From Schmidtea nova (lineage: Eukaryota): a stretch of 64,000 bases of DNA. A program made the translations under genes and the position numbers. Position 1 is the stretch's first letter. Each line of letters opens with the position of its first letter. This document shows positions 23,440 to 50,624 of the stretch, piece by piece. The stretch spans positions 135,284,001 to 135,348,000 of the forward strand of contig CM097884.1 of NCBI GenBank assembly GCA_044892505.1, given 5' to 3'. Under the pieces are notes generated by a model. The model ran no database searches. It was not told the DNA's origin and was given only the letters and a program-made list of their open reading frames with translations.

Positions 23440-24039
23440 ATGACATATACTGCCATTAATGATATATTTACAGACATGACGGAAACCAAGGGCAGAGATT
23501 TCAAGCAAGAGGCGCGAGAACACAAGGCGCGCTCACGAGTCCTGGAGAGTCGATTAAGGCAGCTGAATGAGGAGCATCAGCGGGTTAAAACGACATGGTT
23601 TAGCCCAGAGCGGGTTAAGTCCATCCTGCAGGCTAGATACAGGGCGGAACGAGTAGCTGAGGAACATGCCAGAGAGATTGCAGCCCTGAAGCTGGAGTTG
23701 GCGAATTATTTGAAGGTGTCGACTCGAGACTTCATCACCGAACAATTGCGCCCCGTGATCCGAGCGAGCACCTTTAATCGATGGATAGATACGATAGCGG
23801 TAACTACGAGTACCCAAACAGAAACCGATACCATCGCAACCACGACGATCGAATCAACAACGAAAACTCCAGCCGGTTCAAAACGAACGAAGAGGAGGAA
23901 TCGCTTAGGAGCGAAAAAGCGCAGGGAAAGACGCGCATATGCAGATCGCGTAGGAATAGAGGTAGACTTGCTCAGTGGTCTATCTGAGCAAGAACTACTA
24001 AATGTAATTCGACCCTCTGTATTGGTGAACTATAAATAA
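23440..24039 (+). CDS. LTR-encoded ORF2 (199 aa; coiled coil, TQT motif, Arg-rich basic patch); start may be Met13 at 23476
   Basis: Intact in both LTRs; homologs at 18283 and 10572; AATAAA at the stop. Confidence 0.8.
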   Translation: MTYTAINDIFTDMTETKGRDFKQEAREHKARSRVLESRLRQLNEEHQRVKTTWFSPERVKSILQARYRAERVAEEHAREIAALKLELANYLKVSTRDFITEQLRPVIRASTFNRWIDTIAVTTSTQTETDTIATTTIESTTKTPAGSKRTKRRNRLGAKKRRERRAYADRVGIEVDLLSGLSEQELLNVIRPSVLVNYK

Positions 24040-24429
24040 ATGTATATAAATGAATGACTTGATTTACCTTGTTTGTTTGATGCATGTATAAGAAGTAAAA
24101 GTAACAAAAACCCTGGTTCATTTAAATTGCAGATATCTAAAAAGTAAATTACCCTAGAGCAAAGTAAGGAGCATAAGTGGGACCGAAAGAAAGCCACAGA
24201 CACCTTCTATCGGTAGTGGTGGACCCGTGAATAAACAAGGGAATAGTAGCCGAAAGGTTGCTCACCTGCCTTGTCATTTCACAACGTTGACACAGCACCA
24301 ACATGATGAGTAGTTAGGGATACATCATGGGTGTCAGCGGGGGAATGTTTTTATGTTGGCGAGATCACCCTAACATATAAAATCATAATGATCTCAGTTG
24401 TCAATCTAACCAACACACCAGCATAAATT

Positions 24430-28405: not shown

Positions 28406-29551
28406 ATGAGTGATCACAGAGAGGATCTAAGAGAAAAATTCAAGGGCGAACCATTTAATGGAGACGCCAGTAGATTGGACACGTTTCTGAAGGAATTTGG
28501 CATATTCGTGGATATATGCGGATGGAGTGCAGAAACGTTAGCGAATCGAATCCCGCTATACTTGAAAGATAGCGCATTGGATCTGTATATTGAAAAGAGA
28601 TCTGGAAGTAATCCACCCAGAACGTGGGAAGCGATCAAGGAGTTCTTCCAACAGACGTTTGGGATAAACAAAGTGCTGAATGAAGCATTCGATGAGTTCT
28701 CAGCAAGAAAACAAAGGAGAAATGAGTCAAATGCGGTGTACGCAAGCGAATTAAGAAAGTTGGCGAAACTGGCATTCAACAGAGGAAGCCCAGTAGACGA
28801 AGAATTGATGACAGCGTTATTCGTACGAGGTCTCAGGAGACCTGACATCAGAGCACAAGTGGGATGCAAGGGATGTAAAACAGTAGATGAAGCGTTGGAA
28901 GCAGCCAACCTATTCGAATTGCATATGGCAATGAATGACATGAGAATTACGGCGGTAATGGGAAAAACGACAGAAGATGAAGAACAAGGAAAAAGAAACA
29001 TGAATCAGAGTATTCCCCATTCACAGAGATTGTTCAAAGAACCGCCAGCGAGGAAGAATAACGGATATATCACGGTGAACACGAATGGAGGAAATAGTTA
29101 CAATGACAGGCAGAATAGGCAATGTCAGACGTGTGGGAAAAACGGACATTGGCAACAAGAGTGTTTCCAGAATGTAGCCTGTAAACTGTGTGGACAAAAA
29201 GGTCACTCAGAAAATCGATGTTATGGGAAAACGTGTTACACATGTGGAAAAACCGGACACATGTCAAGAGACTGTAATCAACAGAGAAGTTGGTCAAACA
29301 GTGGAAATAGACCGAATTACGGGAATCGACCAAGCTATGGGAATCAAGGTCAACAACGGAACAACCCAAACAGCAGTGCAAACGAAGCTAGTATGAAAGA
29401 AGCTAAGTTGAGACAGGAGGTATCCAGATTACACGAGATAATCGAAAGCATGGCAAAGGGAAGCCAACAAGCTGCTCAACCAAAGATAAACATGATCCAG
29501 TTAATAGAAGCTGAGGCCGAAAGAGAAAACAGAGAGTCAACAGAAACATAA
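28406..29551 (+). CDS. gag: Gag (retrotransposon capsid domain plus three CCHC zinc knuckles)
   Basis: FNGD...LKDSAL..Y...W..IK..F..TFG capsid pattern; CQTCGKNGHWQQEC, CKLCGQKGHSENRC, CYTCGKTGHMSRDC. Confidence 0.93.
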   Translation: MSDHREDLREKFKGEPFNGDASRLDTFLKEFGIFVDICGWSAETLANRIPLYLKDSALDLYIEKRSGSNPPRTWEAIKEFFQQTFGINKVLNEAFDEFSARKQRRNESNAVYASELRKLAKLAFNRGSPVDEELMTALFVRGLRRPDIRAQVGCKGCKTVDEALEAANLFELHMAMNDMRITAVMGKTTEDEEQGKRNMNQSIPHSQRLFKEPPARKNNGYITVNTNGGNSYNDRQNRQCQTCGKNGHWQQECFQNVACKLCGQKGHSENRCYGKTCYTCGKTGHMSRDCNQQRSWSNSGNRPNYGNRPSYGNQGQQRNNPNSSANEASMKEAKLRQEVSRLHEIIESMAKGSQQAAQPKINMIQLIEAEAERENRESTET

Positions 29552-29639
29552 TCAAGAATGGGCTAGAGTACGACGAGAAGAAGAACAAGTCAGGCAACAA
29601 CGATTACAACAGTTAAAAAAGGGAAATCCAAGGATCAAC

Positions 29640-32600
29640 ATGATGCGAGCAATGATGGAAGAGAAGCAGCAGGATGAGTCAGACGAGTTAGAAGTTAAAG
29701 AGAAAAGAAACGAAGAGCAGAAACAAGAAGAAGTGAGTCAGGAAGTAGAAACTACAGAGCAGAATCAAAAAGTGGAAGAAGTAGAAAAAGAAACAGAAAC
29801 AGAAAAAGAAACAGGAAAAGAAACGAATCAAGAAGAGGGAGTGAGAATCAAACAAAGAGGAATGTTGGTGATCATGCCGAATGATCACGTATTTCGATTC
29901 AAATACGATGTAAAAGAAGAAGTAGGAAGATTGTTCAATAAAGTAAATGAGATGATTCCGGGAGTGACGAAACTGCCCAGAGAAGCATTCCTACAAACAG
30001 AGGATCTACCAGAAGTGAAGTTAAAGATGACTGATATATGGGAAGATATGGGAGTAACGGAGACGAAAATAAACGTGATGATCATCAGAGAGGTGGAACC
30101 GGAGAAAATCCCACCACCAGTGAAACATCAAACTCGGATCAGTCGAATATTCAAAGGAAAAATAAGACGAAGACGGTTGGAAGAAATAGAGGAGTTGGAG
30201 AAAAGAATGGGAAAAGCTGAAATAACGGGAAACGAGAATGAACTAATACAGGAAGTTAGCAAAAACGAAGCGAGACCAACCGCGCATATTGGGATGCTGA
30301 GACACCCAAGACAAGAGTTGTCAGATGAAGAAGATGACAGCGAAGTTAGCAGTCTGGCAGGAGACATGCTAAAGGAACCGGAAAACGAGGATAAAAAGAT
30401 GGAAGTAGTCGAGACGATAGAAATGATGTCAGTAAAGGAAGAGGAAATTCAGAAGCTGATGGATAACGCGTTGGAAGTAATCCATAACGAGGAGTTTATC
30501 GACGGGAAACGATATAGAAAGTTTATACGAGCAGTATGGCAGATGAAGTATAAAGAGTGGTTACAAGAAAGAGAAGTGAGGGTAATACAAGAATTCATAG
30601 AGAAGTTATTGAAAGAACCACTGAACGAATACGTAATACAAATATGGATAAACGAGTGTTCACCGAGAATCTGGATAAGGAACCCAATGACGGATGGAAT
30701 ATATCGATGGGTTGAGGACAGATTGGGAAGCTCGTACAAAGACAAGTTCATATACTCAGGAAACGGATTGGTGAGAAAAGGAACGCATATGATAGACACA
30801 GGCATATGGCCAGGAGAAATAACGACGTTATCAATATGCAACACCAAAAAGGAAGAGAACTTACAAGGAATCGTCAAAGAAGCGAATACGTGTTACGAGA
30901 TGAGAATAAAACCTCAGTTGGTAGAGGCAAAAGAAAGAATCTTGGCGGAGAATTTGAATACGATGATAGAACAGATCATCCAACAAATCAAGAAACATCG
31001 AAAGGAATTGACGAAAAACGAGTATGAGAATTTGAAACAGTGTATCGAGAACATACGAGATACAAGTCAAACGAGACATTCAAATTTCAAAACAGACAAG
31101 CTAATTGCAAAGATGGGAAAAGAAATGTTTAAAAGAGGAGAGGTATCAGACCTGAAGATTACCGTGAGATTGCCGAACGAGGAGACAAGACAAATTGAAG
31201 TAATACCAGATAGTAAAGTGGGAGAAATAGTAGAGGTCATCAATGAGACGATATTACAACGAGAACGAGAAGACGAATTCGAAGATGACATTGCGATAAA
31301 ATACAAAGAACATCTACTGAACGAACGTGACGAAAGACGAGCGTATAAAATCGGCATATGGGACAATTTCCAGACAATACACGTCATCAGAATGGATGAT
31401 GTGCCAAGAGCAACACCAAGAGATGAGGAAAGGAAAAAGAAACGACAAGAGGACGTTATGCGCAAGTTGAGGCAGATAGTAGAAATCTATCGGAACTGGC
31501 AGATGAAGCCAGAATGGGAGACAATATTGGGGGAATTGGATCTTAACCGACGACGATTGACGCCAGTAGAGAAGCAATGGGATAACAAAGAGAAACGTTG
31601 GAAAGTGAAAAGAGGCGTATATGAAGAAGATCCGGAGGGAGAAGACAGATACGAAACGAATACAAAACGGATATGTATGGTAACAAGGAGAATATTACCA
31701 ACGGACTTAGACGGACCAGAAACTGCAGTAATATGGGCAGAATTGGAGAAACAGAAAACGAGTGAATTGATCGAGCTGTTGAGAGGAAATACTCGGGGAA
31801 AAAGACAAACAAAAAAAGGCTTAGCACAATTCATAATCTCAAATGGAGAAGACATAACGAACTTGAGAAAAGTAGCTAAAGCGATAGCAGAATACAAGAG
31901 AGTTAACGAGTGGTGTCCAGAGCAACTAGACGAGGTAATAAAAAAGTGGAGAAACAAAGAGTTTACGGAGGAAACGCCACAGAAAATACATTTGAGGATA
32001 ATGTATCCGAATCAGAGAAAAGAAGAGTTTTGGGTGATGCTAACAGAAAAAGTGAAGAGTGTTAAAGAGAAGCTGATGTATGAACTACCATTCCACCTGC
32101 AACATCAAGGACGATCGTTGGATAACAATTTGGAAATCTGGCTGACACCAGTACAATTGGATCTAATGAATACGCTAACAGTGGCACAGATAGTGGGTCA
32201 ACCACTGAAGTTTAAAGAGGAAAAGAAAGCGAAAGGAAGCATGAGTACACCAAGTCCGATGAAGTCAACAACGACCCCAGGAACAAGTTCGGGACAAGCA
32301 AGGACAACACCAATCAAAACGAGAGAAAGAACACCGCCAGAAGCGTATGACGTCGATGAGATACTAACAGACAGTGACGAAGCGATAGAAGAATTAACGA
32401 AACTGACTCAAAAACCAACGGCGAACATTTTTGACAGAATAATAGAGATGCCAATAACGTCACCAGCAGAAATCGACGATCAAGGAGTGGAACAGGAGGT
32501 AGTCATAGAAATGGTAAACGATTCGGAAGACGAACAAGAACAACCACAGTTTACTCAAGAAATGGAAAGATGGTTAGAACAGCGAGCGAACGAAGGAAGA

Positions 32601-35600
32601 GATGTTACAGAAGAAACCGGAAGAGCAGCGAGATTTGTAGAAACCGGAACTGGAATGGAAAAACGACCAAGAGGGAGACCAAAGATAGATCTAGCAACAA
32701 CAATTCCAAAGACAAGAGAAGAAAGGAGACAAGAGCAATGGGAGATTTGCTTGAAGAAACTAGACAAAATCGCAGAAATCAGAGGAAAAGAGGAGAATCA
32801 AGTTTGTCAAGGAGAAGAATGGCTCACCAAAACGATAATGGATGTACTAGCAATAATTGACCCAGACTTAAAGAATTTGTGGCGAATAAACGAACCTAGT
32901 ACAAAGGCAAAAATGCTACACAATGCAATAGCACCGATTATGCCAGAATTGATAAAGGCAAAAACAAAATCGAATCATCTAGATTGGCAAGGAACCACGA
33001 TGTTGATAAAAGGGCTACTTAACGGAGCAGAGACGGATAGCAAATATCTAGTAGCAATCTCGTATACGATATACAATTTGTTAACGCTAAGCCGAGGGAG
33101 TCCGAAGTCAAGTCCGATGGGAAGACATATTAAAAATACGGCGATGATTATCGAGAAAGAAATTGAACCATATATCCTCAGAAAAGGAGGATGGGAGAAG
33201 TTCATAAAAGAGAACCAGACGAAAGAAGGCTCTAACGTGATGAGAAAGAAACTCGAAGGAGTATTGAGAGAAATGGAGAATAGACAAACGATGCAAGGAA
33301 ACGGAAGATCGACGTTGAATCTAAACTCGATAATCATGATGATGCTAGTATGGTTGTTAAGCACAGAAGGTGTAACAACGTTCGAAGTATTTGATTGTGA
33401 TCAAATGAAGTTAGGAGAAAAGTACTCATTGAGAGGTACGGAGCAATGCAAAGATGCAACTCCAGTAGAGTTAAAAGAGATTAAAAAAGAACAATGGTAC
33501 CACGTGTATCAAGAGGCAGAACTAATAAAGACAATGGTGAATGAATGCAAGGTACAGAAGACGAGATTCGCATTCTATTGTGGGAGAGGACATTATTCAG
33601 CAATTGTCATGCCAGGAACAGAAAGAGAACCAATCGTATTGCAAGGGGAAGACTGCGAAGCATTATTTAAACATGGAGAAGTAACAACGAGAGATAAAAT
33701 CAAGATAAAAGGAAAACCAGGAATGATGTTACAGCAGACATATTACGTAGCAGGACGAATTACGGGAGGAGAAGGATATTGTCAAGGAGAAACCTACCCA
33801 ATATTTGGAGTACCTGCAACCAACTTAGTGGTAATGGATACGTACATAGTCGAACTGAAAAGTTACGAAGCATTCTTCGAACCAACAACAGGAGAAATGA
33901 AAACGTTATCCATGTGTAAAATTGACAGGAGTATGTGTCAAACGGGAATGTCAACTTTGGTGTACAAACCGAAAGTGAACGAATGTCAATTACAACTGCT
34001 ACAAGGAGCAAAGTTCGACGAAATTCAAGGAAAAACGTTCCAAGAGGAGGACGATGACGACAAAGCTAGAGCAAAACATCTCAAAGAAGCTTTAGAAAAT
34101 AAAAGACAACTGAAATCAGAGCAGAGAGAGAAACGGATAGAGATGAGAACCACACCAACAGTGTTGATAACCACAAATCAGGATGTGGGCATGAGATTCA
34201 TAAAAGGGAAAGCAACCCTTAAGTGCAGTACAACAGTATACGAAACAAACTATCCAGGAATATATGTGTCAAAGCAAGAAGTACCGAATGCGAAACCCAA
34301 GATCGACACAATGGATATCAAGCTACACTTGTATGTGAATAATAAAATGGATTTCTTATTCCATAGAGGACAAGCCTCATTGCAAAAAGTGTACTATGAT
34401 CTGATAAACAACGATTGTATACTGAATCGAGAAATATTGAAGACAAAGTTGGCCGTAGCGATTACGAATCCAGATAGCGCGATGCCATTATTACCACTGA
34501 GAGAAGGACATTTCGGAAGAGTGGTCGGAGAAGCAATGTACGTATACATTTGCGAAAAGACACACGCATCGCTAGCAGCAACAACGCAGTTGAAACCTGG
34601 ACAATGTACAAACGAACTAGAAATCGATTATAAAGGAAAAGTACGATATGTTCAACCGGTGACGAGAATCATCAATCCACCAGGGTTTGAACCAAATCCA
34701 TTCAACTGTAGTAATGCGTACGGACCGCTTTATCAGAAGCCAGATGGCAAATGGGTTATGTTCCCAGGAAGAACCGAAGTATTAGCACCAAGAGAATTTG
34801 AACTGATGCAGTTGTCAAAAGATAGACAGTTCAGTGACGTAGATGTCTCAAACAACGGAATCTATAGTCCAAAGGATCTAGAAGCAGCAAGGCAGAATAT
34901 ACTATTTCCGGCAAGAAGAGAAGCATTACTGTCAAATATCGTAACGATAACGGGAGGAACGAATTATCGAGAAGGACCGAATTACGAACTGCTGTTGTCA
35001 CCGGCACATTTCAAGAAAGCCACAGAAAATATGATGAAGGCAATGTGGGGAAGATTCCTGATATTTGGACAAATGATGGCTGGAATACTGGGGGTTATAC
35101 TGATAATACAAATCGTCAGAGTGATAATAACGCAAATGTTAGCGTGTTTCGATATCTACAAGAGAGAAAAGAAAGTGAATTGGAAAATGGTAGTAGGGTT
35201 TTTACCATTCCTTGCGAAAACGATGGTGTTACACGGACACTCAAAAGACATACATCGAATAAAGAGGTTGTTGAAGATACTTGCAAAAATGAGAGGAACA
35301 AATGAAGATGTCGGAAGGAAATTCAAAAAGATAATGCAAGATGAACAAGCAAGACGACAACTGAAGAAGGAAAGGAAAGGATTATGGGAAAGAGTGAAGG
35401 GATATCGAACACAAGATGATTCAAGCAACGACGACGATGACGATGACGATCAAGGAGGACAAGCGAATATAAACCAGATTCCACAGTATAACGAAAAGAG
35501 TGCAGTTGAGAATTGGAGATACAGTGCTCCACCTCAGTCAATGTATAACGAACCGATATACAAAGCGAAGCCGAATATGATGCAGATGATGCCGATGACA

Positions 35601-38600
35601 AGTATATACCCGATAATTCCAGAAGACTGCAAAGTAAAACGAGGCGGAAGCGTAAACTCGTTAGAAGACACGCATACGATAGCGGTTATGTCCACAAATA
35701 TGGGACCGATTTTAACAACAACTGTAGAAATAAACGGAAGAGAAATTGAAGCTATGATCGATACAGGCGCGAATATTTCGGCGATCGACATTAATCATAT
35801 ACCAGAGAAAAATCAAGGAGAAATCGAGAAGACGAATGTTCATGTAATCGCGTGCAGTCAAGAGACAGTAGAAGTAGCCGGAAGATGGTTTGTAAAAATT
35901 AAGCATCGAGGTGCAGAAATCAACACGTACATCGCTGTAATACCATCGCTGAGTGTACCATGTATTATTGGAACTGACCTGATGCCAGACCTGTTCAAGG
36001 AAATCGTAATTGATCTAGGAGCAATGAAGCTGAAAGATAGAACAGGAAAAATCTGCAGAATGAAAGTTAAAGTGGCAAGTGCAGGACAAATAGTAGTGCC
36101 AGCGAGGCACGAAATGATGTGCTATGTCAAGATCGATTCGACAATAAAGGGAGACATGATATTCGAACCAAGTAAGAAGTTCGAAGCGAAGAAGGAATTA
36201 CAAATGGCAAGAGAATTGGTCACGATAAACCAAGAAGGAGAAATACCGATTAATCTGGTAAACTTCGACGAAGAGGACAAGATAATATACGAGAATGAGA
36301 ATTTGGGTAAATTAACACCCATGTCCGAAATCGAAATACCAGATAAGAATGAGAAAAGCAAAGACGAGTTACCATGGAAAATCGACAGTGTGTTGTTAGA
36401 CGAACGACAAAAAGAACAGTTACAGAAACTGTTGATGGAATATAAAGATATATTCGCAGCATCAGATTTAGATCTGGGAACATGTGATGTAACATTACAC
36501 ACGATACCGTTGACGGACGAAACGCCAATCGTATTACGACCATACAAACTGGCAGAAGCTCAAAAAGCAGTGGCAGAAGAAGAGGTACAAAAGATGTTAG
36601 ATGCAGAGGTCATCGAACCTAGTTGCTCACCCTGGCAATTCCCGGTGGTGATGGTGAAAAAGAAGGATGGAACTCAAAGATTCTGTATCGATTACAGACG
36701 ATTAAATGCCGTTACGAAAAGAGATACGTACCCACTGCCAGACATAAATGAAATGTTGTTGACGTTACAAGGAGCAGCCTATTTCACGTCACTGGATTTA
36801 AAGAGCGGATATTGGCAGATCAAAATGAAAGACGAGGATAAAGAGAAGACAGCATTTACAATCGGACGAGATCTGTACCAATTCAAGAAAATGCCGTTTG
36901 GGTTAACAAACGCGCCAGCATCATTCCAGAGATGCATGAATTTCGTAACACATGGCATAAAACAATGCATGGTGTATATCGACGATCTATTGATCTACTC
37001 CGCAACATTCGAAGACCACTTGCAAGACATCAGAAATGTGTTCGTGAAATTAAGGCAATGGAAGCTGAAATTGAAGCCGTCAAAGTGCGATTGGGCAAAA
37101 GATAAAGTGACATTCTTAGGTCACATTGTATCAGCAAAAGGAAAAGAACCAGATCCAAGAAATATCGAGAAAGTTAAAGAATGTCCACCACCCAAGACAG
37201 TAACTCAAATACAAGAATTTTTGGGATTGTGTGGATATTATCGAAAGTTTATCAAGGACTATGCAGGAATATCAAAGCCAATGCAAGAATTAGTAAGACA
37301 AGACGTGTCGTTTGTGTGGGGAGCAGAACAGCAAGCAGCATTTGAGACATTACGAGACAAGCTGATTACAGCGCCAATATTAGTCCATCCAGATTTTAAG
37401 AAGCCATTTCTGTTGGCAACAGACGCAAGTGGATACGCAGCAGGAGCAGTACTAGGCCAATTCGATGAAGAAGGCAAAGAGAGAGTAATTGGGTACTACA
37501 GTCGAACATTCAGGAAACATGAAAAGAATTACTCAGTCACGGAAAGAGAAGCCTATGCGATAATATTGGCAATCAAGCATTTCAAATACCTGTTGTGGGG
37601 TCATGAAATATATATCACGACGGATCATCAACCATTGGTATGGTTAGGTCAACATAAAGAATCATCAAGTAGATTGATGCGTTGGGCGATGCAGTTGCAA
37701 GAATACTCGCCATTCATAAAGTTTAAAGCAGGAAAAGCAAACGCAAACGCGGATTGCATGTCAAGGTTTACATTTCCGGAATTGGTGAACCTAAATGCTC
37801 TAAAAATATGTGCATTAATAGCGGAGGATCTGGATTTCAGCGAATTAAGGAAAGATCAACTCGAAGATGAGGAGTTGGGATTGATCAGCAAGTATCTGAA
37901 AGAAAGGGAAATGGAGATATTCGGCAAGAACCAAACGTTACGCGAACATATGCAGAAATATCAGCACCGATATGTGATGGAAAAAGGATGGTTATTGATA
38001 CAAGATGGAGAACGAAGATTAATGTGCTTACCTGCGAATAGGCGAAAGGAAATCATGACTCAATATCATGACGGAAAATTAGGCGGACATATGTCAGCGA
38101 AAAAGACAATCGGGAGATTGAGACAAAAGTATTTTTGGCCAACCATGGAAGATGATGTGAAAGAATGGATAAAGAACTGCTTAACCTGTGCGACAAGAAA
38201 GAACGTCGGAACAAAGTGGAAAACACCACTAAAACCAATGCCAATACCTGCAGAACCGATGGCAACGATAGCAATGGACGTAGTTGGACCATTGCCGGAA
38301 AGCTTAAAGGGGAATCAGTATATCTTAGTAGTTACGGACTATCTAACAAAGTTCCCAGAAGCATTCGCAATACCAGATCAAAAAGCAAAAACAGTCGCGA
38401 GAATATTGGTAGAAGAGATATGCTGCAGATACGGAACACCCAAGAAAATCCTAACGGACCAAGGAACGAACTTCATGAGTGAAATATTAGACGAAGTCAC
38501 GAATTACTTCCGAATTGCGAAATTACGAACATCCCCATACCATCCGCAAACGAACGGTCAAACAGAAAGGTTCAATGGAACATTGATACGCATGTTGTCA

Positions 38601-41600
38601 AATTACGTCAGTAAACATCAGACTGACTGGGACGAGTATATCAACTTGTGTTTAATGGCATATAGAATGTCAATACATGCGGCAACAAAGCTAAGTCCAT
38701 TTCAACTGATGTACGGAAGAGACTGCAACTTACCGATCGATTTAGAATACCAACCACCATTATCACAGTACATGGAGGTTGACGATTACGTGACGAAGTT
38801 CAAAGAAAGAATGCAAGAGATCTGGAAAACGGCGGAACTAAACATCAAGTTCTATCAAGAGAGTTACAAGGATCTGCATGACCAGAAAAAGAATGTGAAA
38901 GCACATGATTTAAAAGTTGGAGATTGGGTGATAATCGAAACACCAGAGATAATACCCGGTACGGTCAAGAAACTCCAACGACCAGGCAAAGGGCCATACG
39001 AAATAACAACAGTAAATGAAAACAATGTGCGAGTACGATTGGTGAACAATCCATTGGTAAGACCAATATACGTGAATGCATGTCGATGCAGGAAAATACC
39101 AAAGACAGCAACTCTATCACCAGAGAAACGGGTGATGACAAGATCACAGACGGCGAGAATTAGTATGTTACGAGTACAACAAAAGCCGCAAACAAGTCTA
39201 GAAGACAACCGAAGAGAAGTAATAGACATCAAAGAACTGGCAAAGAGGACCAGAGAAATTATACCAGAATGGAAATGGTGGTTCGATTTCAATATATTGA
39301 CAGAAGTTCGAAAGAATGTAATGGACTATGCTAAGGATAGAACAGCACATCCAATAACAAGGACGCTGCTAGAGGAGATCCCTCAGACATTGAATCTACA
39401 AGACAAAGATGGTAATACCGCGTTACATAATGCAATCAAGCACAGTGGAAACGAAAAAGTGAAAGAGATCGTGGAAATGATACTCGAAGGTGGAGGAGAA
39501 ATTGACAAAGTGAATTGGGAAGGAATCACTCCACTGATGATGATGACGATTCACGGAAGAAACGATGAAATAATCAAGCTATTCGGAAACACCAGATCGA
39601 ATTGGATGACAAAAGATAAAGAAGGGCGAACTTTCTTGAATCATGCAATTGATAGAGCAAATCACCGAATACTGAAGTATATCACGGAGAATGCCACGTG
39701 GGAAATCGACGAACTAACTAGAGGATCGATCATGAAACAAGCAATCGGGGTAAAGAACAGTAAAACCTGGAGGATATTGCTAAAATGGAAACGACCAGAA
39801 GGAGATTCGTGGATCATGGATTGTAATGAAGTGTTCATAAAGGGAGAAAATGCGCTACTGAAACATCTATTAGAAGTAACATACGATCCAAAAACACTTG
39901 CAGTGTTGATAGCGAGAGATACGCTACGGGTTAGTGAAAACCCAAGAGAATACAAGTTGGAAGACAGAAAGAAGGAACTATTCGGATTAATCAAGAAATG
40001 GTGCGATAAGCAATGGAATCCGGATATGAGCTTCGAACATTTCTATGACATCCAAAAGCAGCACAAAGAAATAAGCAAACGATATAAAGAGCTGGTGGAA
40101 GCATTGAAGTATGGACAATTCTTCAGACAAGCAGTGTATCAAGACCAACGAATGAAACAGATGCAAACGCGAATAAGAAGCAAAGCAGTGTTGTTCAATG
40201 CAAAAGCTGATTATCAAGAGAGATTAGACGCAATCGTAGCAAAAGCACAGGAGAAATTATCGGAATTCAAGGAGAATAAAAAATCGCTAGAAATACTAGG
40301 AGCAATTACAGAGAAAGTGCACAGATATGCACAAGGAGACTCTAACGAGAGTGACATGGAAACGATCAAAAATCAAATGCCTGTAGCATTCCTATTATCG
40401 AAGAATGGGAGATTGCCGATACATTGGGCATTACGTCGAAAGAAAGAAAACGAAGTGCTAGAAATAACGAAAGCAATGGTCAAGTGCGAAGCAGACATGA
40501 ATACGGTTGATGGTAATGGAGATACAATCATGATAATCGCAGCAAGGAAGAAGACGAAGTTGAAAGTGCTAAATGAATTATACGAAGCAGGAGCAAAAAT
40601 CGAAGGGAAAAATGGAAAGAATAATTCCATCATAGATATCGCAATACAGTGGAACAATTTCGAGATGATCAAGTTCATAAAGTCCATCAAGAGACAAGAG
40701 GACATAGAATACCTGGCAAATAACGTAAAGAATTTCAGTTTGACAGTAATGATACACGACATAGAGAAAACAAGAGCATTAATAACATGGGTGAATCCGA
40801 TCACCAAGGAACCGGCTTTCAAGATCAATGACCATATGGAACAGAATCAGAATTGGTGTATCAGAAGCGCGTTATTAAGACACAAAAAGCCAGAGATAGT
40901 AGAAGAATTCTTAAAGAGAAGAGATTTGAAGTTCACGAACAATCCAAAGGAACCCGAACGAACGGGAAGATGGAAAAACTTGTTCAGAAAATATGTGAAT
41001 GAATGGACAAATGCCAAAGGAGCAATCAAGCAAAGTAGACTAGAAGACAGGGAACCATCCAAGGAGATGGAAATACGTGAATTCGAGTCTAGCACACTCG
41101 CGGTTCAAACGTATGAAAGATTGATTGAAGAAATTAATGTCGAGGACGACATTTCGAAAGGACCAGGGGGTGGTTACAGAGATTTCGACGACAAAAGCAA
41201 CAACGAAGAGAACAACGAAGACAATGACAACAAAAGAACAGAGGATAATGAAAAAGAAAGACAAGAAGAACCGAAACCAACGAGAAACGACAAGAAAGGG
41301 GAAGCCGAAGAACGAGAAAACAGTGGAACAAAAGACGAACATGCGAACTATGGAAAACGAACAGGAAGTCTACTTTTGAGACCAGAAATGTTGTGTATTG
41401 CGATATTGATAACAATCATCGGACAAGGAGAAGCCAAGAAACAATACGTCACGCTAGAGATAATCAGAGGAAAGGAAGTATACGAAAGAATATGCTGGAA
41501 AGAAAACCTGAAGAAAAACGATACGCTGAAGTGTATATTGTCAGATCTAAAGCGAGACGTCATCCAAATCAAAGGATTGGAGAAAGAAAAGTCATACATA

Positions 41601-43313
41601 ATATGCGCAATAAAGCAGAGAGGAGAACCAAAAGCACCTCAGGTAACTGCATGTCAATTATATAAAGCAACAGAAGCGCTGAAAATACAGAAATGGATTG
41701 AGAAAAGAAGCGAAGAGACAACGAGAAGAACAGAAGTGGAATTGGAGAAAGGGAAGAATCAATCTGAAGCAGAAGAAGGAATCGGAAACCGAACGGAGAA
41801 AGAAAGAATAACCAAAAATTCAGCGGGAAAATTAACATTCCAACCGGAATTGATATGTGTAGCATTAATATTAATCCTCATTAAGAGAATCATGGAGGAC
41901 ATAGATATTAGCGTAATGACGTTAGTAAATATCCAAGACCAACGAACAACGAACGGAAGATGTTGGGGACGAAACAATGAGGTAATTGGAATCAGCGAAA
42001 CAAGAGAAAGTCGAGAGACAGAGACAAATGAGGAAATCGAGATAACCGAAATGGAAACAGAGAAAACATGTGAACTATGCCTCATGGAAAAAGCAGCAAA
42101 CGGAAACAGACCAGGAACAAGCGAGTGTAAAGTGTTCCAAGCAAAGGAGATAATTGAGTTCCCAAAAAGAAAGAAACAAGATCAAGAAACGATTGCGAAT
42201 GAAGTAGTAACAGTGGAGATAAAAAACATTGGTCGGAGAACAATTGGGATGTGTTGGAGAAAATACATCGGAGTACCGACCAACAACATAATACCGCAAT
42301 GCAGAACGAGAGAACGAGGAATCCCGTTTCAACTAAATGGATTCGAAGTCGGACAAACCTACGAAATTTGCGTAATTCGAAGAATAAGAGAAATAATACT
42401 AAGAAGCCTGGAGTGCAAACTGTACAAGACGCCAGAGCAAATTAACGGAACAAGAACGATCGAAATGGGAGGAAGTCGACAGAGGAAAAGAAAGTCAAGA
42501 AGAACCACGACAACAAACAGTCAAGGAGTTCAACAGGCAACAACGGAAAGAACGACAATAGAAAACGAACCGGAATCAACAACGCTGATAATATGGAAGA
42601 TCCATAAAAAGGTCCTAGAAATCTGTTGGACACTAATGCCGAACAGTATGGGAAAGTCCCCACGAAACTGTCAAAAGACATCAAATGATAAAGGAGAAAT
42701 AATCGAGGTAGAAATGAGGAAGTTGAAAACAAACGCAGAGTACGAAGTGTGTGCAATCGAAGAAGTAGATGCACAAGGAAATCCACAAGAAAGGTGCGAA
42801 ACCTATTACACGCCAAGGAACACGACGATAAAGAGGAGAATCAAAAAGTTAGAATTCCGAGAATTGAGTCAGAAGAGAGAACAAAACGAGAAGGAAGAAA
42901 CAATACCAAATCAACAAGAAAGATGGGAACCAGAGAAAGTGATTGAAGAAGTTAGACGGAGACAACAACAATATGAACAATGGGAAGCAGAATGGAAAGG
43001 TCAATATGGCGTGATGATAAACCAAAGTGAGACTCCAAGAATGAGCATTGGAAAAACAGTAATGGGATTAATCAGCATGGGAGTATTCATAGCGTGTATA
43101 CCGCTGATAACGATCATGATAGTATGTTGGAGATATGGCATGAGAAATAAGACCATAGCAGTAAAATGGCCGGACGTAAAGGTCACGAACTACAACATAA
43201 AACTACCAAAAGAAGTACGAGAAGAGCTGAAAAGACGATCGAAACACGAAGAGATGTGGGTACAGATCGAAGACGAGGAACTGTACGAAGGAAAACCAGT
43301 GATAGTCGTATAG
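29640..43313 (+). CDS. pol: 4,557-aa polyprotein: accessory domains, glycoprotein, PR, RT, RNase H, IN, ankyrins, FN3-like membrane domain
   Basis: Uninterrupted 13.7-kb ORF (frame open from 29508); DTGA 35760, YIDD 36975, TDAS RNase H, HHCC plus DDE integrase, GPY motif. Confidence 0.96.
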   Translation: MMRAMMEEKQQDESDELEVKEKRNEEQKQEEVSQEVETTEQNQKVEEVEKETETEKETGKETNQEEGVRIKQRGMLVIMPNDHVFRFKYDVKEEVGRLFNKVNEMIPGVTKLPREAFLQTEDLPEVKLKMTDIWEDMGVTETKINVMIIREVEPEKIPPPVKHQTRISRIFKGKIRRRRLEEIEELEKRMGKAEITGNENELIQEVSKNEARPTAHIGMLRHPRQELSDEEDDSEVSSLAGDMLKEPENEDKKMEVVETIEMMSVKEEEIQKLMDNALEVIHNEEFIDGKRYRKFIRAVWQMKYKEWLQEREVRVIQEFIEKLLKEPLNEYVIQIWINECSPRIWIRNPMTDGIYRWVEDRLGSSYKDKFIYSGNGLVRKGTHMIDTGIWPGEITTLSICNTKKEENLQGIVKEANTCYEMRIKPQLVEAKERILAENLNTMIEQIIQQIKKHRKELTKNEYENLKQCIENIRDTSQTRHSNFKTDKLIAKMGKEMFKRGEVSDLKITVRLPNEETRQIEVIPDSKVGEIVEVINETILQREREDEFEDDIAIKYKEHLLNERDERRAYKIGIWDNFQTIHVIRMDDVPRATPRDEERKKKRQEDVMRKLRQIVEIYRNWQMKPEWETILGELDLNRRRLTPVEKQWDNKEKRWKVKRGVYEEDPEGEDRYETNTKRICMVTRRILPTDLDGPETAVIWAELEKQKTSELIELLRGNTRGKRQTKKGLAQFIISNGEDITNLRKVAKAIAEYKRVNEWCPEQLDEVIKKWRNKEFTEETPQKIHLRIMYPNQRKEEFWVMLTEKVKSVKEKLMYELPFHLQHQGRSLDNNLEIWLTPVQLDLMNTLTVAQIVGQPLKFKEEKKAKGSMSTPSPMKSTTTPGTSSGQARTTPIKTRERTPPEAYDVDEILTDSDEAIEELTKLTQKPTANIFDRIIEMPITSPAEIDDQGVEQEVVIEMVNDSEDEQEQPQFTQEMERWLEQRANEGRDVTEETGRAARFVETGTGMEKRPRGRPKIDLATTIPKTREERRQEQWEICLKKLDKIAEIRGKEENQVCQGEEWLTKTIMDVLAIIDPDLKNLWRINEPSTKAKMLHNAIAPIMPELIKAKTKSNHLDWQGTTMLIKGLLNGAETDSKYLVAISYTIYNLLTLSRGSPKSSPMGRHIKNTAMIIEKEIEPYILRKGGWEKFIKENQTKEGSNVMRKKLEGVLREMENRQTMQGNGRSTLNLNSIIMMMLVWLLSTEGVTTFEVFDCDQMKLGEKYSLRGTEQCKDATPVELKEIKKEQWYHVYQEAELIKTMVNECKVQKTRFAFYCGRGHYSAIVMPGTEREPIVLQGEDCEALFKHGEVTTRDKIKIKGKPGMMLQQTYYVAGRITGGEGYCQGETYPIFGVPATNLVVMDTYIVELKSYEAFFEPTTGEMKTLSMCKIDRSMCQTGMSTLVYKPKVNECQLQLLQGAKFDEIQGKTFQEEDDDDKARAKHLKEALENKRQLKSEQREKRIEMRTTPTVLITTNQDVGMRFIKGKATLKCSTTVYETNYPGIYVSKQEVPNAKPKIDTMDIKLHLYVNNKMDFLFHRGQASLQKVYYDLINNDCILNREILKTKLAVAITNPDSAMPLLPLREGHFGRVVGEAMYVYICEKTHASLAATTQLKPGQCTNELEIDYKGKVRYVQPVTRIINPPGFEPNPFNCSNAYGPLYQKPDGKWVMFPGRTEVLAPREFELMQLSKDRQFSDVDVSNNGIYSPKDLEAARQNILFPARREALLSNIVTITGGTNYREGPNYELLLSPAHFKKATENMMKAMWGRFLIFGQMMAGILGVILIIQIVRVIITQMLACFDIYKREKKVNWKMVVGFLPFLAKTMVLHGHSKDIHRIKRLLKILAKMRGTNEDVGRKFKKIMQDEQARRQLKKERKGLWERVKGYRTQDDSSNDDDDDDDQGGQANINQIPQYNEKSAVENWRYSAPPQSMYNEPIYKAKPNMMQMMPMTSIYPIIPEDCKVKRGGSVNSLEDTHTIAVMSTNMGPILTTTVEINGREIEAMIDTGANISAIDINHIPEKNQGEIEKTNVHVIACSQETVEVAGRWFVKIKHRGAEINTYIAVIPSLSVPCIIGTDLMPDLFKEIVIDLGAMKLKDRTGKICRMKVKVASAGQIVVPARHEMMCYVKIDSTIKGDMIFEPSKKFEAKKELQMARELVTINQEGEIPINLVNFDEEDKIIYENENLGKLTPMSEIEIPDKNEKSKDELPWKIDSVLLDERQKEQLQKLLMEYKDIFAASDLDLGTCDVTLHTIPLTDETPIVLRPYKLAEAQKAVAEEEVQKMLDAEVIEPSCSPWQFPVVMVKKKDGTQRFCIDYRRLNAVTKRDTYPLPDINEMLLTLQGAAYFTSLDLKSGYWQIKMKDEDKEKTAFTIGRDLYQFKKMPFGLTNAPASFQRCMNFVTHGIKQCMVYIDDLLIYSATFEDHLQDIRNVFVKLRQWKLKLKPSKCDWAKDKVTFLGHIVSAKGKEPDPRNIEKVKECPPPKTVTQIQEFLGLCGYYRKFIKDYAGISKPMQELVRQDVSFVWGAEQQAAFETLRDKLITAPILVHPDFKKPFLLATDASGYAAGAVLGQFDEEGKERVIGYYSRTFRKHEKNYSVTEREAYAIILAIKHFKYLLWGHEIYITTDHQPLVWLGQHKESSSRLMRWAMQLQEYSPFIKFKAGKANANADCMSRFTFPELVNLNALKICALIAEDLDFSELRKDQLEDEELGLISKYLKEREMEIFGKNQTLREHMQKYQHRYVMEKGWLLIQDGERRLMCLPANRRKEIMTQYHDGKLGGHMSAKKTIGRLRQKYFWPTMEDDVKEWIKNCLTCATRKNVGTKWKTPLKPMPIPAEPMATIAMDVVGPLPESLKGNQYILVVTDYLTKFPEAFAIPDQKAKTVARILVEEICCRYGTPKKILTDQGTNFMSEILDEVTNYFRIAKLRTSPYHPQTNGQTERFNGTLIRMLSNYVSKHQTDWDEYINLCLMAYRMSIHAATKLSPFQLMYGRDCNLPIDLEYQPPLSQYMEVDDYVTKFKERMQEIWKTAELNIKFYQESYKDLHDQKKNVKAHDLKVGDWVIIETPEIIPGTVKKLQRPGKGPYEITTVNENNVRVRLVNNPLVRPIYVNACRCRKIPKTATLSPEKRVMTRSQTARISMLRVQQKPQTSLEDNRREVIDIKELAKRTREIIPEWKWWFDFNILTEVRKNVMDYAKDRTAHPITRTLLEEIPQTLNLQDKDGNTALHNAIKHSGNEKVKEIVEMILEGGGEIDKVNWEGITPLMMMTIHGRNDEIIKLFGNTRSNWMTKDKEGRTFLNHAIDRANHRILKYITENATWEIDELTRGSIMKQAIGVKNSKTWRILLKWKRPEGDSWIMDCNEVFIKGENALLKHLLEVTYDPKTLAVLIARDTLRVSENPREYKLEDRKKELFGLIKKWCDKQWNPDMSFEHFYDIQKQHKEISKRYKELVEALKYGQFFRQAVYQDQRMKQMQTRIRSKAVLFNAKADYQERLDAIVAKAQEKLSEFKENKKSLEILGAITEKVHRYAQGDSNESDMETIKNQMPVAFLLSKNGRLPIHWALRRKKENEVLEITKAMVKCEADMNTVDGNGDTIMIIAARKKTKLKVLNELYEAGAKIEGKNGKNNSIIDIAIQWNNFEMIKFIKSIKRQEDIEYLANNVKNFSLTVMIHDIEKTRALITWVNPITKEPAFKINDHMEQNQNWCIRSALLRHKKPEIVEEFLKRRDLKFTNNPKEPERTGRWKNLFRKYVNEWTNAKGAIKQSRLEDREPSKEMEIREFESSTLAVQTYERLIEEINVEDDISKGPGGGYRDFDDKSNNEENNEDNDNKRTEDNEKERQEEPKPTRNDKKGEAEERENSGTKDEHANYGKRTGSLLLRPEMLCIAILITIIGQGEAKKQYVTLEIIRGKEVYERICWKENLKKNDTLKCILSDLKRDVIQIKGLEKEKSYIICAIKQRGEPKAPQVTACQLYKATEALKIQKWIEKRSEETTRRTEVELEKGKNQSEAEEGIGNRTEKERITKNSAGKLTFQPELICVALILILIKRIMEDIDISVMTLVNIQDQRTTNGRCWGRNNEVIGISETRESRETETNEEIEITEMETEKTCELCLMEKAANGNRPGTSECKVFQAKEIIEFPKRKKQDQETIANEVVTVEIKNIGRRTIGMCWRKYIGVPTNNIIPQCRTRERGIPFQLNGFEVGQTYEICVIRRIREIILRSLECKLYKTPEQINGTRTIEMGGSRQRKRKSRRTTTTNSQGVQQATTERTTIENEPESTTLIIWKIHKKVLEICWTLMPNSMGKSPRNCQKTSNDKGEIIEVEMRKLKTNAEYEVCAIEEVDAQGNPQERCETYYTPRNTTIKRRIKKLEFRELSQKREQNEKEETIPNQQERWEPEKVIEEVRRRQQQYEQWEAEWKGQYGVMINQSETPRMSIGKTVMGLISMGVFIACIPLITIMIVCWRYGMRNKTIAVKWPDVKVTNYNIKLPKEVREELKRRSKHEEMWVQIEDEELYEGKPVIVV
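32738..33215 (+). other. Bcl-2-like domain within the polyprotein
   Basis: IEKEIEPYILRKGGWEKFI resembles BH2 (Bcl-xL LNDHLEPWIQENGGWDTFV); weaker BH3-like LKKLDKIAE and BH1-like ELI...LDWQGT in the expected order. Confidence 0.55.
33321..35250 (+). other. Chuvirus-like fusion glycoprotein domain
   Basis: Signal-like SIIMMMLVWLLSTEG; FDC...YSL...EQC, ECKV...R...YCG..H, YVNNK, NDCILNR, FGRVVGEAMYVYIC Cys pattern; C-terminal TM GILGVILIIQIVRVII. Confidence 0.8.
35700..36030 (+). other. Aspartic protease domain
   Basis: INGREIEAMIDTGANISAI ... CIIGTDLM. Confidence 0.9.
36550..37790 (+). other. Ty3/Gypsy-type reverse transcriptase plus RNase H
   Basis: SPW..PVVMVKKKDG..RFCIDYRRLN, LDLKSGYWQI, MPFGLTNAPASFQR, YIDD; LATDAS...ERE...TDHQPL...NADCMSR. 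Confidence 0.95.
38040..39080 (+). other. Integrase
   Basis: YHDGKLGGH...CLTC; AMDVVG, TDQGTNF, TERFNGTL; C-terminal GPY module. Confidence 0.95.
39390..40690 (+). other. Two ankyrin-repeat clusters (~39390-39700 and ~40400-40690)
   Basis: NLQDKDGNTALHNAI, NWEGITPLM, KDKEGRTFLNHAI; KNGRLPIHWAL, ADMNTVDGNGDTIMIIA, GAKIEGKNGKNNSIIDIA. Confidence 0.8.
41382..43313 (+). other. C-terminal membrane module: hydrophobic leader(s), four FN3-like Cys-containing repeats, TM, short tail
   Basis: Four repeats of [xCW ... I/L..L....Y.(I/V)C ... C..(Y/F)]; TM GLISMGVFIACIPLITIMIVCW at ~43060-43135. Confidence 0.55.
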
Positions 43314-47341: not shown

Positions 47342-48855
47342 TGTTGGGCTAGCAAGATCGAGCAGCATCTGGAAATAATATACAATCAATAAAATAAATT
47401 TACAACAGAATAACAACAAAATAAATTACCAACACCAAAGCGTAACAAATAAGCGGCAACATCTAAAAGAAATAACATATTAACCAAAACAGCAAAAATC
47501 TTCAAAACTCACTCATGCGAAGCAGAAAAAATTGGAATATGACAGCGCGTGGGCGGATGTCACCAAAGACCTAAAAACAAAAATAAAATAAAATAAATTG
47601 ATGACTAAGAAAAACTTACCGCATGATTAACCAAACAAATCGGCAAGTTAAGTTAGGCAGCAAAAAGCCGACAACATGAAAAAATGAAGCAAACATACAC
47701 ACATACTCGATGCTGATTGGCTAACCAACAACACCGGTTCAGTATAAATACTGAAGTCAAATCAGTATTTGACAATGCCATTTTTTACCAAGTGTAACTT
47801 GCAGTTGAGTACTGAGAACATTGTAAAACCAACTTGAAGGAAAATAAAAGGTAATTGTTGTGTGTTAGATTGTTTCTTTAAACCCTCATAATTATGATTG
47901 TTAACCATATTAAAATCAATAAGGTTTTCCGGAGGCCTAACAGCCTGACGGATTCTTGGGGCCTCTCAGCGCAACACAATCTTTCGGTTGTGAGGTGCTG
48001 ATGCGGCGGGACCATAGGTGTTCTAAATATTTAACAAGCGGAAGGGGGAAGGGCACATCGGATATCTCATGCCATCGTAACCTCAGTAGGGGTAGAAGCA
48101 ATTGAAGGACGTATCATCTGTCACGACAACATCGAGTACCTTGGTTTACGTAAAAGACGTGTTGATAGACACAAAGTGTCCAGCGTTCGTGAAGTCAAGT
48201 AGAGTAACGACAACTTTGTGCAGAGGGTAAGTATCATGATAAATTGAGCACTGACGATGATAGAGCTATACAACGCATGAGCCATGTGAGTCAGAGACCG
48301 ACAGTGCTAGGGTCAGAGGTAAACCATGAATCCACAGGATATCCCAACATATATGTACGCCTCTCGAAGGGTACGAAGGATAGACCCACGAAATGTAATG
48401 CAAGTACAATCTATACCCAATTAACCTGAATAAGGGGTCGATCGTGTTCCCCGGATGATGTGATTCTTGATAGTTGAACCTGAGGTATGGAGATAACACC
48501 TGAGGAGTGATTGAGCATGATTGTTGTAAAAAATAAACCAAAATGGTCTCTGAAATGATGATAGTCAAACATAATAAATGGTCAAGTAATCATCGTAGAT
48601 AAAAACAGACTGTCATAAACGGCACTGAATTATGCGTGGCCAAATCATATAAGTAAATTGATATAGCGAATACACTCACCCGCAATGACAATAACATACA
48701 TCCTACATAATATCTTGAACGTCGGACCGGTTCAACACTGAACCACCAACTGCAACCTACAGAGTTTCACCCTTGAGTCGAGTAGGTCAACGGTTATAAA
48801 TAATTGCGCGCACCCGACAAATTCATCACAATAACATATTCTTGTCTTCAGCAAT

Positions 48856-49491
48856 ATGATAAAGACCGAAGAATACCAAAGAAGTCTGAGCACCTCTCGA
48901 CAGATGAAAGTGGAAGATTATGTCGTCCGGAAACCGCGACGCATCCGTTCCGTCGTCCGGCCAAGGAGGATCCCTACCATCGATGGAGAAATGGAAGCCC
49001 CACGCAGAATTAGCGAAACTGCGCGTCGACATCTACGTCGGTGGACAAGACACCATATGAGTGCAGCCGCAGGTATTCCGGCTTGCACCTTCACGATACA
49101 ATTACGATGGGAAGGAGACCCCGATTGGATGTCCACCATGGACCCTGCCGAACCAAGGACCGATAGGTGGTTCTTCCAATTCCTCGACGGACAGAGACGA
49201 CCCCGCTGGGTGTTGAGCAATGAAATGATGACGGGAAGGGCTCTATTTCAATTAGGGTACATGCTGCTAGACAGGCCTCGGTGTCGCTACACTGAGGAAG
49301 TCTTCGCTTATTCCAACGCACCAGGAAGTGTTTCCGTGGAACAACACCCCGAGCCCAAGGAGCTTCGCCTCTGGGAGGTGTTTATCTACAAAGATAAGCT
49401 GAGTTGGGACCCAGCCCCAGAAATGTATTGGGAGAATGGAATTCGCCGCGACGAGCATCCTGCCGATCAGGAATTGAGGACATTCAGTTGA
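48856..49491 (+). CDS. LTR ORF1, 3' LTR copy
   Basis: Translation identical to 22655-23290. Confidence 0.75.
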   Translation: MIKTEEYQRSLSTSRQMKVEDYVVRKPRRIRSVVRPRRIPTIDGEMEAPRRISETARRHLRRWTRHHMSAAAGIPACTFTIQLRWEGDPDWMSTMDPAEPRTDRWFFQFLDGQRRPRWVLSNEMMTGRALFQLGYMLLDRPRCRYTEEVFAYSNAPGSVSVEQHPEPKELRLWEVFIYKDKLSWDPAPEMYWENGIRRDEHPADQELRTFS

Positions 49492-49640
49492 TTGATGCAG
49501 CCGAGAAAGAATGATTGTCTTAGATATAGAAATATATGTATTGGAGTGCGACGGTCTTGTTTTGTTTTGAGTGCATGAGAACAACCTAAGGATAAGGTAG
49601 AGTTGTGTAATGACGATAGGATGACCGAAAGATCAGACAC

Positions 49641-50240
49641 ATGACATATACTGCCATTAATGATATATTTACAGACATGACGGAAACCAAGGGCAGAGAT
49701 TTCAAGCAAGAGGCGCGAGAACACAAGGCGCGCTCACGAGTCCTGGAGAGTCGATTAAGGCAGCTGAATGAGGAGCATCAGCGGGTTAAAACGACATGGT
49801 TTAGCCCAGAGCGGGTTAAGTCCATCCTGCAGGCTAGATACAGGGCGGAACGAGTAGCTGAGGAACATGCCAGAGAGATTGCAGCCCTGAAGCTGGAGTT
49901 GGCGAATTATTTGAAGGTGTCGACTCGAGACTTCATCACCGAACAATTGCGCCCCGTGATCCGAGCGAGCACCTTTAATCGATGGATAGATACGATAGCG
50001 GTAACTACGAGTACCCAAACAGAAACCGATACCATCGCAACCACGACGATCGAATCAACAACGAAAACTCCAGCCGGTTCAAAACGAACGAAGAGGAGGA
50101 ATCGCTTAGGAGCGAAAAAGCGCAGGGAAAGACGCGCATATGCAGATCGCGTAGGAATAGAGGTAGACTTGCTCAGTGGTCTATCTGAGCAAGAACTACT
50201 AAATGTAATTCGACCCTCTGTATTGGTGAACTATAAATAA
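49641..50240 (+). CDS. LTR ORF2, 3' LTR copy
   Basis: Translation identical to 23440-24039. Confidence 0.8.
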   Translation: MTYTAINDIFTDMTETKGRDFKQEAREHKARSRVLESRLRQLNEEHQRVKTTWFSPERVKSILQARYRAERVAEEHAREIAALKLELANYLKVSTRDFITEQLRPVIRASTFNRWIDTIAVTTSTQTETDTIATTTIESTTKTPAGSKRTKRRNRLGAKKRRERRAYADRVGIEVDLLSGLSEQELLNVIRPSVLVNYK

Positions 50241-50624
50241 ATGTATATAAATGAATGACTTGATTTACCTTGTTTGTTTGATGCATGTATAAGAAGTAAA
50301 AGTAACAAAAACCCTGGTTCATTTAAATTGCAGATATCTAAAAAGTAAATTACCCTAGAGCAAAGTAAGGAGCATAAGTGGGACCGAAAGAAAGCCACAG
50401 ACACCTTCTATCGGTAGTGGTGGACCCGTGAATAAACAAGGGAATAGTAGCCGAAAGGTTGCTCACCTGCCTTGTCATTTCACAACGTTGACACAGCACC
50501 AACATGATGAGTAGTTAGGGATACATCATGGGTGTCAGCGGGGGAATGTTTTTATGTTGGCGAGATCACCCTAACATATAAAATCATAATGATCTCAGTT
50601 GTCAATCTAACCAACACACCAGCA

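Follow-up and report, generated by a model that had tools for sequence, protein, structure and literature searches.

A predicted second surface protein with FN3-like repeats at the polyprotein C-terminus of a young Burro-like LTR element in Schmidtea nova

Descriptions of LTR elements that carry an env gene usually assign them a single envelope protein, which serves both binding and fusion. A 64,000-nucleotide stretch of Schmidtea nova DNA (GCA_044892505.1, contig CM097884.1, positions 135,284,001 to 135,348,000 of the forward strand; hereafter the window) raises the question of whether such an element can encode a second surface protein. The initial annotation had read the end of a long open reading frame (ORF) in this window as a membrane protein with FN3-like repeats, acting either as a decoy receptor or as an attachment protein that partners a fusogen. 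Here we ask what this region encodes, how it might reach the membrane and whether it recurs in related elements. All features lie on the forward strand and are numbered from the first nucleotide of the window.

The element and its long open reading frame

The LTR element spans 21141-50624 (29,484 bp, ~29.5 kb), from a 5' LTR of 3,283 bp with TG...CA ends (21141..24423) to a 3' LTR at 47342..50624, and is flanked by a 4-bp target duplication, AGAT. The LTR pair is 99.97% identical, with one mismatch over 3,283 bp, which together with the TG...CA ends and the target duplication indicates a very recent insertion. Features inside the LTR, at 21542-21655 and 22655-24039 and again in the 3' LTR, are a TATA-like box followed by a donor-like AAG/GTAATT, and two ORFs (211 and 199 aa) that have no Pfam match. 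A primer-binding site directly after the 5' LTR (24429-24446) presumably resembles a tRNA-Pro complement; no tRNA gene was found. The 5' leader of the element contains a 19-bp tandem array and dispersed repeats of ~90 bp (26150-26750, 27060-27740). Older related LTR pieces, 70-76% identical, lie upstream of the element at 16160-19240 and 6833-7031, and host-side tandem repeats of 263, ~444 and 27-28 bp occur at 53630-54440, 57597-58480 and 61561-62639.

The long ORF (29508..43313; 4,601 codons stop to stop) encodes, in order, an unassigned N-terminal part, the fusogen, PR-RT-RH-IN, ankyrins and the second membrane protein. Pfam identified in it a Monjiviricetes-type fusogen, ankyrin repeats and the pol domains protease, RT, RNase H and integrase. 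The first membrane protein (33327..35129) consists of an internal signal, a Monjiviricetes-type fusion glycoprotein ectodomain and a transmembrane helix (TM), as assigned from hydropathy and from a PF24664 match (E 7.5e-74 in a Pfam search of the element ORFs); PF24664 precedes RVP within one ORF, that is, env is in frame and upstream of pol. According to Pfam, gag lies just upstream of the long ORF, with TRAF-like and RING ORFs alongside. The window gag is a separate ORF (28043-29551) that overlaps the long ORF in a different frame, whereas gag in Burro is in one ORF, an in-frame polyprotein in Burro1; the frame break may be a programmed shift, a mutation or an assembly error. The ~1,260 codons before the fusogen (29508-33299) gave no significant Pfam match; in the pre-fusogen stretch of Burro, BCL2- and SUMO-like domains were reported by HHpred (PMC6431247).

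Behind the long ORF, the interval 43314-47140 holds four ORFs of 116, 470 (TRAF-like), 386 (coiled-coil) and 174 aa (leader and TM). The spacers between them are 73-122 nt long and each carry three to four TGTA motifs, against a background of 4.2 per kb; AATAAA occurs in two of the spacers, and a YAG stands 1-7 nt ahead of the next ATG. To judge from the sequence, these spacers would fit an operon-like polyA/acceptor layout. A third, small membrane protein of type I is predicted at 46616-47140, with a leader, a helical ectodomain, a TM and a basic tail; it had no significant Pfam match.

Anatomy and fold of the C-terminal region

The second membrane protein occupies the last 645 codons of the 4,601-codon ORF, up to the stop at 43313, and the leaders, repeats, TM and tail were all located there, at the polyprotein C-terminus as initially proposed. 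The two leaders of the initial annotation are RPEMLCIAILITII at about 41379-41420 and QPELICVALILILI at about 41841-41882. Leader 1 (41388..41435) starts at a Met that is preceded, 2 nt upstream, by a splice-acceptor-like CAG (41383..41390). It is a predicted signal peptide with an 11-residue hydrophobic core and a small-residue, cleavage-like end, G-E-A, which we take to be a cleavage site from signal-peptide rules. Repeat 1 (R1, 41436..41681) is followed by leader 2 (41850..41882), a duplicated 11-residue hydrophobic core without a Met, AG acceptor or cleavage-like end, and then by repeat 2 (R2, 41898..42146), in which the Tyr is replaced by Cys, and repeat 3 (R3, 42195..42434). A polybasic stretch with a minimal R-x-x-R convertase-like site and a Thr-rich linker (43% S/T in 30 aa) come next (42474..42578), where convertase cleavage and O-glycosylation may take place. 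Repeat 4 (R4, 42570..42815) leads into a charged stalk (42816..43037), probably helical according to a low-confidence model, a 23-aa transmembrane helix called from hydropathy (43059..43127, KD19 2.65) and a cytoplasmic tail of 61 aa (43128..43310), so the TM and short tail of the initial annotation were recovered. The tail contains basic juxtamembrane residues, a W-P-x-V ten residues past the TM and an acidic Tyr site, and ends in V-I-V-V (43299-43310), which we take to be class II PDZ-binding-like rather than S/T-x-V. Six sequons precede the TM, three of them between leader 2 and the TM. No RGD motif was found, and tblastn gave no second copy of the region within the window. The parts of a type I layout (signal, sequon-bearing ectodomain, TM and tail) are all present, but leader 2 is an extra hydrophobic segment. 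The region very probably encodes a surface glycoprotein, predicted to be of type I, that belongs to a young Burro-like LTR element with an env gene.

Four repeats with a conserved CW had been noted, and both shuffling and a leave-one-out HMM bear them out. The 4,601-aa ORF contains five CW dipeptides, four of which open the four repeats while the fifth closes the TM. With hand-chosen boundaries, each of the six repeat pairs outscored 2,000 shuffles (z 3.5-7.7, p<=0.0065), and the held-out repeat ranked first in 4/4 leave-one-out runs against ~208 tiles of the whole ORF, at 23.2-31.3 bits versus 8.8-11.6 for the best tile elsewhere. Identity to R3 is only 23-25%; each repeat has exactly four Cys, the linkers between repeats have none, and the C-W and Cys positions are invariant across repeats despite DNA divergence. 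The Y.(I/V)C motif stands in three of the four, whereas R2 has C-E-L-C. As for FN3 landmark residues, Trp is found in 4/4 repeats, Tyr in 3/4 and Leu in 2/4 (Phe and Met in the others), and the Trp-to-Tyr spacing is 33-38 aa; it is about 46 aa in canonical FN3 domains. The suggested internal duplication is supported by whole units: leader 1 with R1 aligns to leader 2 with R2 at a score of 94, against 29.5+/-5.4 when shuffled. Similarity between the two leader units is gone at the DNA level (local score 22), and the leader-FN3 duplication is therefore old.

For R3, AlphaFold was run on an alignment of the four repeats. The best model has six strands (pLDDT 77.9, pTM 0.65), not the seven of the FN3 topology A-B-C-C'-E-F-G; pLDDT over the five models was 78, 64, 59, 57 and 43, with one above 70. 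The top 14 rows of a Foldseek search of R3 against PDB were all FN3 domains, with probability up to 0.99 and E>=0.12. VIA-align over 48,161 chains placed an sDscam FNIII domain first (Z 7.6, rmsd 3.1, 74 of 80 R3 residues aligned) and fibronectin next (Z 7.5), and 49/50 rows were FN3-bearing as judged from titles; IFNAR1 (Z 6.7) and growth hormone receptor (GHR, Z 6.5) were effectively tied with the top rows, within about 1 Z. The structural matches agree on one fold, though at Z < 8, a range that may reflect a common arrangement. Language-model searches returned fn3 for the whole region and for R4 (scores 0.80-0.83, lead level with low recognition), and the top named atlas leads were FNDC4/5/9 (0.80-0.82). 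These results support a reading of the repeats as reduced FN3 domains minus one strand, in which R3 is modelled and R1, R2 and R4 follow by their homology to R3. The beta-sandwich and FN3 parts of the initial annotation therefore stand directly for R3, from the model and two structure searches with middling scores (E>=0.12, Z under 8), and by homology for the other three.

Other searches returned little. A single-sequence AlphaFold model of the whole region reached a pLDDT of 38.7 and was uninformative in fold searches, and the BFVD structure search gave nothing significant (best E 0.11). The 645-aa region had no match in a PDB sequence search, nothing significant in Pfam (best E 0.17) and no homologues among 5,893 near-length and 5,869 longer candidates or in 1.84 billion representatives at E<=0.001. 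The gathering cutoff of Pfam fn3 (PF00041) was reached neither by the region nor by any of the four repeats. MIT_ATG1, returned for R4 at E 0.0035, was below the Pfam cutoff and was judged spurious, and Rpo6, the sole PDB match to the four-repeat profile, was rejected at E 0.24.

A conserved slot, its expression and topology

A fusogen-to-end query among proteins of 2,505-7,972 aa gave 57 matches, 12 of which combine the same fusogen with pol in a single ORF. A quick RT tree of 56 rows (55 of the 57 matches and the window) groups the window and these 12 relatives in one branch (SH-aLRT 99), and RT identity across the lineages of this clade is 51-57%. A post-integrase hydrophobic leader is present in 11/12 relatives, which have a single leader only. 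At KD19>=1.9 in the last 200 aa, a TM was found near the end of 10/13 clade proteins (9/12 relatives and the window) versus 4/45 others, with P0012 just below the cut (1.76). P0005 lacks the leader-ectodomain-TM module and P0021 a clear TM, so the module may be dispensable. As read from the protein sequences, a C-terminal Val closes 8/13 clade proteins versus 2/45 others (Fisher p 2.5e-5, for related rows) and occurs in 4/7 RT lineages (binomial 2.8e-4); five of the eight clade Val ends are S/T-x-V, and this Val is likely a PDZ-binding motif. Across the clade, the slot behind integrase is thus filled by a leader-ectodomain-TM-tail module, usually Val-ended, and this extends the proposed second membrane protein beyond the window. 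Extra aspartyl-protease-like domains occur in P0004, P0005, P0007, P0008, P0010, P0012, P0013 and P0016; in relatives, one such domain lies between integrase and leader, where the window has ankyrins. The tails of the window protein, P0012 and P0013 share an acidic Tyr-Glu-Gly motif near the C-terminus.

The ectodomains differ at the sequence level. The window C-terminus had no BLAST match in the 12 relatives, and the four-repeat profile had none among the 57 proteins (best clade E 0.77). The relatives' domain profile does not pick up the window ORF, hhalign gave a probability of 0.3% between the two sets of domains, and their Cys patterns differ; these alignments lend no support to a common origin of the window and relatives' FN3-like domains. 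MAFFT misaligned the two sets in 2/3 modes, and they were therefore not pooled for folding. An FN3-type L-x-x-x-T-x-Y motif occurs in 8/11 relatives' ectodomains (12 domains by pattern; one to three per relative when counted by eye, in the form C/A-x-x-L...Y). A profile of the FN3-like domains of these eight relatives matched 40 PDB sequences at E<=10, the best being integrin beta-4 (E 0.015), and we take 35/40 to be FN3-bearing; Pfam fn3 supported 0/8. The same slot holds Ig_3 in P0021 (E 1.5e-5, below Pfam's cutoff) and a small Cys-rich domain in P0016 and P0017. Ectodomains are interchangeable in the slot (one to four FN3-like domains, Ig, Cys-rich), so the slot and its architecture are conserved, whereas the ectodomain has been exchanged or has diverged beyond recognition. 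Degeneration in related elements, which the initial annotation had named as evidence against its reading, is not seen at the level of architecture.

Leader 1 would send the repeat domains into the ER lumen, and it may do so by two routes. Within the polyprotein, it would act as an internal signal in an alternating order of signals and stops (fusogen signal, fusogen TM, cytosolic pol-ankyrin part, leader 1, final TM) that would keep pol cytosolic and both ectodomains luminal. In three relatives there is no Met within 120 residues of the leader, and these must depend on this route. The other route would be a spliced mRNA that starts at Met 41388, and a separate subgenomic mRNA for the second membrane protein is possible. 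The strict CAG-before-ATG pattern, which was chosen post hoc, precedes 25/648 ATGs and 8/163 in-frame Mets, and an acceptor-like site also stands before the ORFs for the RING, TRAF-like, coiled-coil and small TM proteins. AG sites downstream of the long ORF precede 43436, 43877, 45382 and 46616.

In the lumen, Cys pairs within the repeats would form disulfides, and leader 2, a presumed relic of the leader-FN3 duplication, would be carried through. It is quite unlikely, in our judgement, that leader 2 instead stops transfer or that leader 1 is skipped, which would yield a hairpin with some repeats outside or two products, a secreted or anchored R1 and R2-R4 with the TM. Such a topology would suit the five hydrophobic segments, which break the signal/stop alternation, and leader 2 itself, which has the same 11-residue core length as leader 1, is as hydrophobic, has Lys-Arg on its C-side and a more favourable summed insertion energy (-4.9 versus -3.7, on a rough, position-independent scale). 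Over a 19-residue window, however, leader 2 is unfavourable (+5.4, as against -1.5 for the true TM). The final TM is also basic on its C-side, and relatives have one leader only. The even four Cys kept in each of R2-R4 and the three sequons between leader 2 and the TM further argue for luminal repeats.

Function and comparison with known systems

The retention of a second surface protein in one place suggests that these elements have a specialised means of adhering to host cells or of manipulating them. We tentatively favour an adhesion or attachment glycoprotein, anchored at junctions and serving the separate fusogen, because of the stalked FN3/Ig ectodomain, the PDZ-type end and the constant presence beside a conserved fusogen. 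It might hold the producing cell or a particle close to a neighbouring cell, where the fusogen could then act, with the tail docked on PDZ scaffolds at cell contacts, and the two proteins would then form a two-glycoprotein system for entry or cell-to-cell spread. A role as attachment partner of the fusogen is plausible and is favoured by two sequence features, the Val motif at the C-terminus and the co-occurrence of both proteins throughout the clade. A PDZ precedent on a retroviral surface protein is HTLV-1 Env, whose ESSL motif binds hDlg at T-cell contacts (PMC3185783).

The receptor mimic or decoy of the initial annotation gained no specific support, as adhesion and cytokine-receptor matches are tied within about 1 Z and WSXWS is absent. 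In such a role, the ectodomain of a decoy or dominant-negative receptor would bind a host cytokine, growth factor or receptor chain and the tail would mis-signal, as part of an apoptosis or immune toolkit of the element. The full TRAF-like ORF, the RING ORF and the ankyrins of the same element fit this, as do IFNAR1 and growth-hormone receptor near the top rows, the Tyr motifs in several relatives' tails and, in the window tail, the acidic Tyr site and the W-P-x-V ten residues after the TM, which we take to be half of the JAK-binding Box1. The second half of Box1, a Pro pair, is missing, however; WSXWS occurs in 0/12 post-leader segments, all four repeats have an adjacent CW and not C-x-W, and the protein is membrane-anchored rather than secreted. 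The swapping of unrelated folds across the clade also suits a general function at the surface more than the recognition of a single ligand. Burro1 is reported, as cited in PMC13465017, to protect stem cells from apoptosis, which would suit a decoy. With cytokine-receptor hallmarks missing, we regard a decoy as unlikely and as weaker than the adhesion or attachment reading.

Receptor interference or superinfection exclusion, in which the surface protein blocks or removes an entry receptor or the fusogen on cells already carrying the element, appears improbable. A fusogen is co-encoded in all clade members with the module, divergence is fast (homologue searches were empty) and trafficking-type tail motifs are present, PPxY in 2/12 segments (P0016 and P0017) and YxxPhi in 10/12; but YxxPhi is common by chance, and the PDZ-like end points to stable anchoring, not removal. 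Neutral carriage, in which a captured piece of host sequence simply drifts at the end of the ORF, is highly improbable. It would account for the very low repeat similarity (23-25% identity to R3), the empty homologue searches and the absence of the module in P0005, but 645 codons have stayed open, the C-W and Cys positions are invariant despite DNA divergence, and the slot and Val end are kept across lineages at 51-57% RT identity. Building on the adhesion or attachment reading, we raise as a doubtful possibility that Burro-like elements form a lineage of complex retroviruses of invertebrates whose envelope has two glycoproteins. Such an envelope would combine a conserved mononegavirus-derived fusogen with a modular, rapidly exchanged adhesion-receptor-like protein. 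With its stalked ectodomain (FN3, Ig or Cys-rich) and PDZ-anchored tail, the latter might set cell tropism and drive spread at cell junctions, for example into adult stem cells; like the other accessory genes, it would be expressed by operon-like splicing.

If true, a second host-like surface protein in one clade-wide slot makes these giants resemble complex viruses. It would also bear on how Burro elements, which are known from planarians, pass from cell to cell in animals that have adult stem cells, and it adds a minimal four-Cys variant of FN3. The second surface protein offers a handle on whether Burro elements are infectious proviruses, an open question in PMC6431247, and annotates a part of the Burro polyprotein without an assigned domain there.

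The element type is already known, and within the literature searched the second surface protein is the new part. The window element resembles Burro/GYPSM1 (PMC6431247) as a ~30 kb Gypsy element with multi-kb LTRs, a mononegavirus-like env between gag and pol, ankyrins, MATH/TRAF, RING, a coiled-coil ORF and tandem repeats. It differs in that TRAF is a downstream ORF and that BIR, BCL2, SUMO-like and dUTPase domains were undetected by Pfam, where PMC6431247 used HHpred. The section on Burro in PMC6431247 lists no FN3 domain or second membrane protein and lacks the word 'fibronectin', and the Burro passages of PMC13465017, PMC8532177 and PMC13238120 likewise mention neither. Our literature search found neither described for Burro-like elements; the primary Burro papers, which may annotate one, fell outside its scope. 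No named Burro sequence is among the 57 matches.

With FN3 adhesion and guidance receptors (Dscam, fibronectin, RPTPs, neogenin/DCC, integrin beta-4), the window protein shares the FN3 sandwich, a predicted type I layout, S/T stalk and PDZ-like end, and the small FN3-TM proteins FNDC4/5/9 are likewise similar. Its domains differ from theirs in being ~80 aa long with six strands and four Cys, in lacking a sequence-level match and in residing in a retroelement polyprotein. A Cys pair on the F and G strands occurs in LRR-FN3 receptors (LRFN, LRRN, ELFN). Class I/II cytokine receptors also have an FN3 ectodomain with disulfides, which in the window protein are presumed, and a single TM, and IFNAR1 and GHR are structurally tied with the top matches; the window protein differs in having neither WSXWS nor C-x-W and an incomplete Box1. 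We take C-x-W with the four-Cys first-domain pattern and the Box1 consensus to be marks of class I cytokine receptors. Viral decoy receptors are known from poxviruses and herpesviruses. Entry by two glycoproteins is known from paramyxoviruses, with an attachment protein and F, and from herpesviruses, with gB and receptor-binding proteins. The window protein has no homology to these systems or to HTLV-1 Env, and its co-operation with the fusogen is proposed by analogy. With two-glycoprotein viruses it would share the pairing of a fusogen with a separate, fast-evolving surface protein, and with HTLV-1 Env (PMC3185783) a PDZ-type end.
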